Positions 50,329 through 53,300 of a stretch of 64,000 nt of DNA are shown here, piece by piece (positions within the stretch are counted from its first letter, which is position 1; each line of letters begins with the position of its first letter). The DNA is taken from the NCBI RefSeq assembly GCF_054482595.1, contig NZ_CM137008.1, one strand, 5' to 3'. A program made the position numbers.

Positions 50329-53300
50329 GTTAGAGTCTTTCAGTCTGCGATGATGGGAAATCCCGGAGTGACTGAAAGACGTTTAAGTTATGAATGATCG
50401 CCTTTTTTTGCAAAATTGCTGTGCAGAAATACTAACCTTCGAGCAGGCGATCATTCATAAGCACTCTGCTTTTATTCCGATTAACTGTGGGTGGTTTGTT
50501 GGATAGAGTGCTTTCCTTTCTGTATATATCGTTTCGCCCGCTTTTGCGGGTTTTTCTTTTCAAATCCCTTTCATTTCTCAGTGTAAAACTACGCCATCCG
50601 TTATTTGCGGAGGTGAGGCTATGAAATCCATGGACAAAATTTCAACGGGCATTGCCTACGGCACCTCCGCAGGCAGTGCTGGCTACTGGTTTTTACAGTG
50701 GCTTGATCAGGTCAGTCCTTCACAGTGGGCTGCGATTGGTGTACTGGGGAGTCTGGTTCTGGGCTTCCTGACTTATCTGACAAATCTGTACTTCAAAATC
50801 AGAGAAGACAAGCGTAAGGCTGCACGGGGAGAGTAATTCAATGACTCAAAACTATGAACTGATTGTGAAAGGGATCCGCAATTTTGAGAATAAAGTTACG
50901 GTAACTTTAGCGTTACGGGACAAAAAACGCTTTGACGGCGAAATTTTTGACCTGGACATCTCGCTGGACCGTGTTGAAGGTGCCGCGCTGGAGTTTTATG
51001 AGGCAGCAGCCAGAAGGAGCATCAGACAGGTCTTCCTGGATGTTGCTGCCGGGTTATGTGAAGGGGATGAGCAGTCGCCGGAAAAGCGCCCCGTAATTTT
51101 AGAGGCGCAGAATGTGTGGATAACCTACAAAGGAAAGCTACCAGGAAGAATTACTGGTTCTCTGAAGACTCCTCCGGAATCACAACCTTAAGTCACTGAC
51201 CGGAACAGATAAACCTGTCCGTGGGCAGAAACCGATAAATCCTGATAAATATCCATGAACGCAAAAATCAGATACGGCCTGTCGGCTGCCGTTTTGGCAC
51301 TGATTGCCGTCGGTGCGCCCGCGCCTGATATTCTCGACCAGTTTCTGGATGAAAAAGAAGGTAACCACACAACGGCATACCGCGATGGTTCCGGCATCTG
51401 GACCATCTGTCGGGGTGCCACGATGGTGGATGGAAAACCCGTTTTTCCCGGTATGAAACTGTCGAAGGAAAAATGCGACCAGGTCAACGCCATTGAGCGT
51501 GATAAGGCGCTGGCATGGGTGGAGCGCAATATTAAAGTACCACTGACCGAACCACAAAAAGCGGGTATCGCGTCATTTTGTCCCTATAACATTGGCCCCG
51601 GTAAGTGTTTTCCGTCGACGTTTTATAAGCGGCTGAATGCCGGTGATCGTAAGGGCGCATGCGAGGCGATTCGCTGGTGGATAAAAGATGGTGGGCGCGA
51701 TTGCCGCATACGTTCAAATAACTGCTATGGACAGGTTATTCGTCGTGACCAGGAAAGCGCATTAGCCTGTTGGGGGATAGATCAGTGAGCAGAGTCGCCG
51801 CGATTATTTATGCTCTGGTTATCTGCATCATCGTCTGCCTGTCGTGGGCGGTCAATCATTACCGTGATAACGCCATCGCCTACAAAGAACAGCGTGATAA
51901 AAAAGTCAGTGAGCTGAAGCTGGCGATCGCCACCATCGCTGACATGCAGCAGCGTCAGCGTGATGTTGCTGCGCTCGATGCAAAGTACTCGAGAGAATTA
52001 GCCAATGCGCAAGCTGAAAATGAAACTCTGCGCGCTGATGTTGCCGCTGGCCGTAAGCGCCTGCGGGTCAATGCCAGTTGCTCCGCAGCCGTGCGTGAAG
52101 CCACCGGACCCACCAGCGTGGATAATGCAACCATCCCCCGACTGGCAGACACCGCTGAACGGGATTATTTCACCCTCAGAGACCGATTGATGACGATGCA
52201 GATGCAACTGGAAGGGGCGCAGGAATATATCCGCACTCAGTGCATTAAGTAGCCTTTTTATCGTGGTAAACATTTCGCAGGGTATGAGGTATTTATGCCA
52301 TCACGAATCCCACGCGCCTGCCGTAAGCGTGGATGTGCAGGTACAACCACAGACAGTTCTGGTTACTGCGATAAACATCGTGGCGAAGGATGGGTACAGC
52401 ATCAACGCGGACTGAGCCGCCACCAGCGTGGCTATGGCTCGAAATGGGATGCCATACGTGCGCGCATACTGAAGCGTGATAATCATCTGTGTCAGAACTG
52501 CCTGCGCAATGGGAGAGCCGTTGAAGCCAGAACTGTGGACCACATCATTCCGAAAGCTCATGGTGGCACGGATGCAGACAGTAACCTGCAGAGTCTGTGC
52601 TGGCCCTGTCATAAAGCAAAAACAGCGCGCGAACGCATCAATTGATAACAGTTCCCATCTGTAGGGGAGGGGCGGGTCAAATCTCTGCAACCCTGGCTGC
52701 TCAGTACCGCCGCCTGACCCTTCCTCACATCGCCGCAGGTTCGAAAACTTTTTTTTGGAAATGTGAACAAACGATTGATAGGTAAGACCGATTATGTCAG
52801 GACCTCCGAAAACCCCGCCACGCCTGCATTTGATTCGAGGCAACCCCTCAAAGCGCCCCGTTAAAGACCACAAAAAAACCGCTAAAAAGGATGAAAAAGG
52901 TCTTCCTAAAATTCCGCAGCATTTAGGGGCTCAGGGGAAGTACTGGTTCAGGCGAATGGCGGAAGAGCTGAATGCGGAAGGGATCATTTCTCAGCTTGAT
53001 GCGCGTGCGCTCGAGTTGCTGGTGGAAGCCTACACCGAATATCGGCATCACTGCGAAACACTCGATGTTGAGGGGTATACCTACCGCACGGAAACGCAGA
53101 GCGGTGATGTACTGATTAAGGCGCACCCCGCGGCGGCAATGAAAGCGGATGCCTGGAAGCGGATCCGGGCAATGCTTGCAGAGTTTGGTATGTCACCGGC
53201 AAGCCGGGCTAAAGTAAATATCGCCGGACCGGATGATGTTGATCCGCTGGCGGAGCTTTTAAAAGCGAGAGACTGATGGCAAAAGTGGCTGACGGGATCC

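Follow-up and report, generated by a model that had tools for sequence, protein, structure and literature searches.

We analysed a 64,000-nucleotide stretch of contig NZ_CM137008.1 (NCBI RefSeq assembly GCF_054482595.1), hereafter the window, and found that positions 50,621-52,252 of its plus strand hold an intact late-operon lysis cassette of five co-directional genes: S, a ydfR-like gene, R, Rz and Rz1. The ends of the interval are exact, 50,621 being the ATG of S and 52,252 the final base of the Rz stop codon. We are highly confident that the five genes make up the late-gene lysis cassette, still intact, of a lambdoid, HK97-headed Escherichia coli prophage, and that it works by the pinholin/signal-anchor-release (SAR)-endolysin/spanin pathway. 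The genes were located by a listing of open reading frames (ORFs) and direct reading of window positions 50,400-52,500, and their identities and motifs are shown by the comparisons below, whereas the dynamic steps of lysis described below would follow by analogy with phage 21, 933W and lambda.

None of the five ORFs is truncated, and their motifs are intact. The Pfam matches of S, R, Rz and Rz1 lie far above chance level, and PHROGs agree with Pfam, giving S as a holin, R as an endolysin, Rz and Rz1 as Rz-like spanin, and the ydfR-like ORF as a gene without assigned function. A sequence-only reading of the window had described a cassette of four genes, S, R, Rz and Rz1; each of these is present, and the description was incomplete only in that it did not mention the fifth gene, ydfR (50,841-51,191).

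Pinholin, endolysin and spanin genes

S (50,621-50,836; 71 residues) belongs to the P21 holin S family (PF04971, 'Bacteriophage P21 holin S'; E 1.4e-35, 121.5 bits against a cut-off of 26). The gene opens with ATG AAA TCC ATG (50,621-50,632), which provides two in-frame starts, at 50,621 (Met1) and 50,630 (Met4), and the same dual-start motif is annotated as S21-71 and S21-68 in the phage 21 record, OL657228. By homology, the 71-residue form from Met1 would be the antiholin and the 68-residue form from Met4 the pinholin. In a global alignment with phage 21 S, 70 of the 71 residues are identical (98.6%), the sole difference being R64K. The dual-start MKSM holin that the sequence-only reading had proposed is thus borne out by the M-K-S-M start, the family match and the near-identity to phage 21 S.

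The first transmembrane domain (TMD1) of S is weakly hydrophobic and rich in Gly, Ala and Ser, with a best 19-residue Kyte-Doolittle window of 0.64, compared with 1.72 for TMD2. The motif G40xxxS44xxxG48 can be read straight from the sequence of TMD2. Because S is nearly identical to the characterized prototype S21, the same holin mechanism can be proposed for it. The Met4 pinholin would accumulate in the inner membrane, and its weakly hydrophobic TMD1 would exit the bilayer. TMD2, with its G40xxxS44xxxG48 motif, would then oligomerize into nanometre-scale holes that, at a set time, dissipate the proton motive force, while the Met1 form, with its extra Lys2, would act as the antiholin. Since the lone difference from S21 is conservative, holes formed by S are expected to be small, depolarizing the membrane and not letting the folded endolysin pass.

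At the DNA level S is only 84% identical to S21 (L004, 3001-3216), with 34 nucleotide differences. Compared codon by codon, the two genes differ at 30 synonymous positions and one non-synonymous position, a ratio that therefore points to very strong, continuing purifying selection on the pinholin across diverged lineages.

The leader of S contains a predicted RNA hairpin (50,589-50,617, plus strand) whose 3′ arm holds the Shine-Dalgarno sequence of the gene, GGAGG (50,609-50,613). The hairpin has a predicted energy of -17 kcal/mol (z -3.58), and none of 200 shuffled sequences folded as well. A comparable hairpin is predicted in the leader of phage 21 S, and the 46 nucleotides 5′ of S are conserved with phage 21. 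Adjoining this Shine-Dalgarno-sequestering hairpin is a small predicted one (50,619-50,633, plus strand) in which the surroundings of the two S start codons, the first and the second (Met4), pair with each other. The leader hairpins would help to determine which of the two starts is used, and the smaller of them might affect the ratio of antiholin to holin.

R (51,255-51,788; 177 residues) encodes a GH24 (T4-lysozyme-like) muramidase matching PF00959, Phage_lysozyme (E 1.4e-24, 87.2 bits), with the catalytic triad E35-x8-D44-x5-T50; the stretch EGNHTTAYRDGSGIWT begins at residue 35. A sequence search against solved structures returned R21 (3hde and 3hdf, E ~4e-16) and RrrD of E. coli K-12 (4zpu, E 8e-16). 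At its N-terminus, K4 and R6 are followed by 18 uncharged, largely small residues (Y7-P24). The best 19-residue Kyte-Doolittle window scores 1.87 and has G, A, S or T at 8 of its 19 positions; the corresponding scores are 2.11 for R21 and 1.78 for R of 933W. The GH24 domain, the SAR-like N-terminus and the homology to R21 (36% identity) support the earlier functional call of a SAR endolysin, as far as sequence can. By analogy, R would be exported by Sec and kept inactive in the membrane by its N-terminal SAR domain. Depolarization by the pinholin would free it, and after refolding its E-D-T muramidase site would degrade peptidoglycan. The 933W R protein has been used experimentally as a SAR endolysin by the Young laboratory; expressed alone it caused few cells to round up, and significantly more did so when the Mu releasin gp25 was co-expressed (PMC9239132).

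R might, alternatively, be a lysozyme secreted in the ordinary way, with a Sec signal peptide that is cleaved off, in which case lysis would be controlled otherwise than by release from the membrane. The uncharged stretch is only 18 residues long, and inspection by eye, the only search made for signal-peptidase sites, revealed A-x-A sites followed by Pro as well as a possible small-x-small site, AVG/A (A18-V19-G20/A21). Proline at +1 is, however, unfavourable for signal peptidase I, which counts against the A-x-A sites. Moreover, the partner of R is a pinholin, through which no soluble enzyme can be released, and toxicity would be expected of a secreted muramidase that is constitutively active. 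Finally, the 91.5% identical R of 933W acts as a tethered enzyme whose activity is enhanced by releasin (PMC9239132). On balance we regard a secreted R as very unlikely, and favour its assignment as a SAR endolysin.

A lambda-type arrangement, with a canonical holin and a soluble endolysin, was also considered and was rejected, as S is an allele of S21 and R carries an N-terminal anchor. Lambda has the canonical holin S105 and the soluble transglycosylase R, in place of which the cassette has a pinholin and a putative SAR endolysin.

The i-spanin gene Rz (51,785-52,252; 155 residues) matches PF03245 (E 1.2e-46, 158.5 bits) and phrog_13, Rz-like spanin. Its GTG start codon at 51,785 overlaps the stop codon of R as GTGA, and the identical start is annotated by RefSeq. 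A TTG at 51,770 was rejected as the start in favour of this GTG on the basis of alignment to Rz of phage 21 and DLP12, a Shine-Dalgarno sequence (GGGGGA) and the RefSeq call. Rz has a strong N-terminal TMD (Kyte-Doolittle 2.73) and cysteines at positions 99 and 153. The o-spanin lipoprotein gene Rz1 (52,005-52,190; 61 residues; PF06085, E 4.7e-18, 65.1 bits) lies wholly within Rz, its start being offset by 220 nucleotides ((52,005-51,785) mod 3 = 1). Rz1 is thus read in the +1 frame, just as had been claimed from the sequence alone. It has the lipobox VSAC with Cys20, a further cysteine at position 30, and 11 prolines among the 42 residues of its mature part. The residue at +2 is Gly, in keeping with an o-spanin, which carries no signal for retention in the inner membrane. 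The conserved cysteines, 99 and 153 of Rz and 30 of Rz1, are the counterparts of C99, C152 and C29 of lambda. Anchored in the inner membrane, Rz would join the outer-membrane lipoprotein Rz1 in a complex spanning the periplasm, and this Rz-Rz1 complex would disrupt the outer membrane.

Three points weigh against a working pinholin/SAR-endolysin/spanin pathway. Cleavage at AVG/A in the N-terminus of R is conceivable from inspection by eye. A 63-nucleotide untranslated spacer (51,192-51,254) separates ydfR from R, with no obvious Shine-Dalgarno sequence before R; in the Qin prophage of K-12, ydfR overlaps rrrQ (as ATGA), and in 933W R lies directly 3′ of S. Finally, excision of the whole prophage may no longer be possible, which would leave the cassette itself unaffected.

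We also considered that the cassette might be a decaying, non-functional remnant, as in Qin and DLP12, two cryptic prophages of K-12. Cryptic Qin does hold the nearest K-12 relatives of R and YdfR, and the integrase is annotated as frameshifted in a near-identical copy of the prophage. Decay is, nevertheless, hard to reconcile with five full-length ORFs that retain their motifs, or with a prophage that keeps complete packaging, head and tail genes. Near-identical cassettes (97-99%) are also found in sequenced phage records, for example vB_EcoM-606R7 and vB_EcoS-689R5, and the 30 synonymous changes against one non-synonymous change in S relative to S21 speak for a gene still under selection. 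We therefore hold a decayed remnant to be exceedingly unlikely, and treat the cassette as probably functional.

The extra gene ydfR

The ydfR-like gene (50,841-51,191, plus strand; 116 residues) starts 4 nucleotides after the stop codon of S. Its product matches PF07041 (DUF1327; E 7.5e-43, 145.1 bits against a cut-off of 25) as well as phrog_406 and phrog_2091, neither of which has an assigned function. The protein is acidic (pI 5.55) and has no hydrophobic segment (maximum Kyte-Doolittle 0.69), and is predicted to be cytoplasmic. In an AlphaFold (AF2) model, residues 1-72 form three strands and a long helix, and a low-confidence tail follows; a search for structural neighbours of this model found no significant one. 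YdfR of the window is 64% identical to that of K-12 Qin, mostly in the N-terminal domain. In the family as a whole conservation is likewise confined to the N-terminal ~72 residues, while the C-termini vary and total lengths range from 72 to 183 residues. Among the homologues (alignment A1; loci L009-L012), these C-termini include a 60-residue helical-looking extension (…EKLE…DEQFAAFYDYCIEVTRRNF…), and two homologue sequences have an internal duplication.

A search of 5.8 billion clustered proteins gave 320 YdfR homologues at E <= 1e-3, and those with named sources come essentially all from Escherichia and Shigella. The gene is present in 101 of 50,697 phage records, compared with 438 records for the S21-family holin. 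We compared six ydfR-containing cassettes: that of the window, Qin, and those of BP-4795, mEp460, Evi and PhiR12_5, four phages chosen with varied similarity. In every one of them ydfR starts 4-5 nucleotides after the stop codon of a holin of the S21 family and is followed by a 177-residue lysozyme of the 933W/Qin type, never of the R21 type. The lysozymes 3′ of ydfR in the compared cassettes are 91-96% identical to R of the window and 33-37% identical to R21.

Qin YdfR was recently reported to bind RNase E's N-terminal catalytic domain via its residues 1-72, as judged by two-hybrid analysis and co-purification, and to co-purify with RNA (2026, PMC13232886). The part reported to bind RNase E coincides with the conserved core of the family. 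Deletion of ydfR was, in addition, among the hits of a screen for envelope integrity, where it appears solely in the supplementary tables, without interpretation (PMC3879167); that result may have a trivial explanation, namely polarity of the deletion on rrrQ, the SAR endolysin gene downstream.

YdfR may be a cytoplasmic accessory protein. It could tune the timing of lysis or the stability of the late mRNA via RNase E or, alternatively, it could act from the cytoplasm on the release of the SAR endolysin. That YdfR is a dedicated accessory factor of such cassettes rather than a passenger gene is, in our estimate, doubtful. What sets ydfR apart is its narrow distribution (Escherichia and Shigella) together with its strict linkage to lysis cassettes, and it is the sole poorly understood part of the cassette.

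Relation to phage 21 and other phages

The sequence-only reading had identified the cassette as a phage-21-type system, useful for classifying the prophage. To assess this we used the phage 21 record, in which the lysis region is annotated as antiholin S21-71, pinholin S21-68, SAR endolysin, i-spanin and o-spanin. Global alignments gave identities of 98.6% for S, 36% for R, 72.5% for Rz and 73.3% for Rz1, so that similarity to both S21 and R21 is evident. As a description of the mechanism, a pinholin with a SAR endolysin and an embedded spanin, the phage-21-type label holds well; as a statement of ancestry it holds only in part, because of R and ydfR.

The likeness to phage 21 extends over the mechanism class, the order of the genes, the 70 shared residues of S with its MKSM start and GxxxSxxxG motif, the hairpin around the Shine-Dalgarno sequence in the S leader, and the embedding of Rz1 in the +1 frame. 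The differences begin with R, which has 177 residues and 8 cysteines, while R21 has 165 residues and 4 cysteines. Its identity is 94% to RrrQ of K-12 Qin and 91.5% to R of 933W, compared with 36% to both R21 and RrrD. R is thus no close orthologue of phage 21 R or DLP12 RrrD and, by sequence, is of the 933W/Qin RrrQ lineage, not the R21 lineage. Furthermore, phage 21 has no ydfR, whereas in the window ydfR lies between S and R, which are not adjacent.

The rest of the phage is unrelated to phage 21 at the DNA level. A blastn comparison of window positions 35,001-64,000 with phage 21 positions 1-36,000 and 36,866-42,931 aligned only two segments, totalling 712 nucleotides and covering S and Rz. 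With 712 nucleotides aligned out of 29 kb, the prophage does not belong with the Jouyvirus group (phage 21 relatives) by genome-wide nucleotide similarity. Its Q, its HNH/P27-type terminase and its HK97-type head genes are unrelated to their phage 21 counterparts. With the alignment to phage 21 limited to S and Rz, the cassette gives no reliable information on the type of the prophage, and its proposed use for classification is not supported.

These comparisons also bear on the literal interpretation, that the cassette consists of orthologues of S21, R21, Rz21 and Rz1-21 and identifies the prophage as a phage 21 relative. The 70 of 71 residues shared by S, the ~73% identity of Rz and Rz1 and the conserved leader of S would fit such an origin. 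R, however, is far closer to the 933W and Qin lysozymes (91-94%) than to R21 (36%), ydfR is an addition that phage 21 lacks, and even the S gene is only 84% identical as DNA. Together with the 712 aligned nucleotides in 29 kb and the different families of Q, terminase and head genes, this largely refutes a literal phage 21 cassette, which we give scarcely any chance of being correct.

Instead, as judged from sequence comparison, the cassette is a mosaic composed of an S21 allele, ydfR and R of the type found in Qin and Stx phages, and a spanin of the lambda/21 type. Qin (essQ-ydfR-rrrQ-rzpQ/rzoQ) shares the order S-ydfR-R, with identities of 94% for R to RrrQ, 82% for S to EssQ and 64% for YdfR. 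It differs in its spanin, RzpQ (DUF2514)/RzoQ, which is of another family (26% and 34% identity), and in its YdfR, which has 103 residues and a different C-terminus. 933W resembles the cassette in R (91.5%), in an S of the same family (76%), in Rz1 (82%) and in the presence of tRNA genes between Q and S; it differs in having no ydfR, in carrying the ant gene between R and Rz and in its set of tRNAs. Unlike in Stx phages, the stx and nanS-p genes are absent upstream of the cassette. The layout S-ydfR-R, with R of 177 residues, recurs in BP-4795, mEp460, Evi and PhiR12_5 (the related Stx phages compared were H-19B and BP-4795), whereas ydfR is absent from phage 21, DLP12 and 933W. In a survey of Stx phages, a predicted SAR endolysin and a pinholin were present in 99% (PMC8136144).

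The spanin genes share with lambda Rz/Rz1 the embedded +1 architecture, the N-terminal TMD of Rz, the lipobox and the Pro-rich mature part of Rz1, the conserved cysteines and the Pfam families, and differ by about 26-28% in sequence. This comparison draws on established knowledge of lambda, with the DLP12 and phage 21 proteins serving as aligned proxies.

Several RefSeq E. coli chromosomes match the 1.9-kb cassette region at 100% identity; the labels that its genes bear there are class II holin, YdfR family protein, lysozyme, lysis protein and, in part of the records, Rz1. Among 5426 complete genomes, 1139 have places that cover at least 80% of this region.

Transcription and prophage setting

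The gene for the antitermination protein Q (49,114-49,809, plus strand; PF06323, E 1.8e-91) lies upstream of the cassette; RefSeq places its start at 49,120 and names it 'bacteriophage antitermination protein Q'. A consensus scan found a pR'-like promoter at 49,793-49,821 (plus strand). A tR'-like hairpin with a T-run is placed at ~49,876-49,900 on the plus strand by our own reading of AAAACCCGCCCACAAGCGGGTTTTTTG, the scan itself having reported the minus strand only (49,896-49,873). The functions of these two elements are proposed by analogy with the layouts of lambda, phage 21 and 933W. Next come four tRNA genes (50,019-50,328, plus strand), identified by ARAGORN as CAT, Lys-TTT, Thr-TGT and Gly-TCC and supported by Rfam tRNA matches of 44-74 bits. 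The scan also found a terminator-like hairpin, GCCCGCTTTTGCGGG, followed by a T-run, at 50,533-50,559 (plus strand), ~60 nucleotides 5′ of S. By analogy with the terminators after the tRNA genes of 933W, this hairpin probably acts as a terminator that Q-modified polymerase would read through. Apart from the four tRNAs, an Rfam scan of 49,000-53,000 found no known regulatory RNA.

From this layout we infer that RNA polymerase would start at the pR'-like promoter just after Q and, once modified by Q, would continue past the terminator-like hairpins and across the tRNA genes into S-ydfR-R-Rz/Rz1.

The tRNA with the CAT anticodon is called Met by ARAGORN and tRNA-Ile in RefSeq, the latter implying a lysidine-modified anticodon. 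The tRNA genes form a packed cluster between Q and S; phage 21 has Asn and Thr tRNAs at this place, and 933W has ileZ-argN-argO followed by stx.

On the 3′ side, the cassette is followed by genes for an HNH endonuclease, a P27-family small terminase, the large terminase, the portal, and the HK97-type protease and capsid. The HNH endonuclease gene (52,295-52,645) is directly 5′ of the P27-family small and the large terminase genes (52,794-55,033). HK97-like cos phages typically show this HNH-terminase pairing, which is not related to the lambda-like Nu1/A terminase that phage 21 has.

On its left side (region 36,108-37,275) the prophage begins at ~36.1 kb in the window, where it abuts tRNA-Ser(CGA) next to mtfA. 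The 341-residue integrase ORF corresponds to a gene annotated as frameshifted in the 99.5% identical prophage of strain Ecol_881, so that the prophage may have lost the ability to excise. At 37,537-39,978 (minus strand) we noted an 813-residue prophage exonuclease with an Exonuc_VIII (RecE-like) region and a C-terminal Rv2179c-like 3′-5′ exoribonuclease domain. Outside the prophage, at 26,745-34,802 (minus strand), lies the gene for a 2685-residue inverse autotransporter, in which IAT_beta is followed by many Big_1 and Invasin_D3 repeats. Ecol_881 carries a yersiniabactin island, upstream of tRNA-Asn, at the position of the inverse autotransporter; the window therefore derives from a strain whose left flank is different.

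The cassette is an already known and already annotated system. Pinholin/SAR-endolysin/Rz-Rz1 cassettes are textbook knowledge and this exact sequence is annotated in RefSeq, so that it carries little weight as a discovery. It is, at the same time, a clean example of lysis-cassette mosaicism gene by gene, with a phage-21-like S, a 933W/Qin-like R and a lambda/21-like spanin, and for this reason the cassette is unfit for classifying the prophage that carries it. The one thread of the cassette worth pulling is the function of YdfR.

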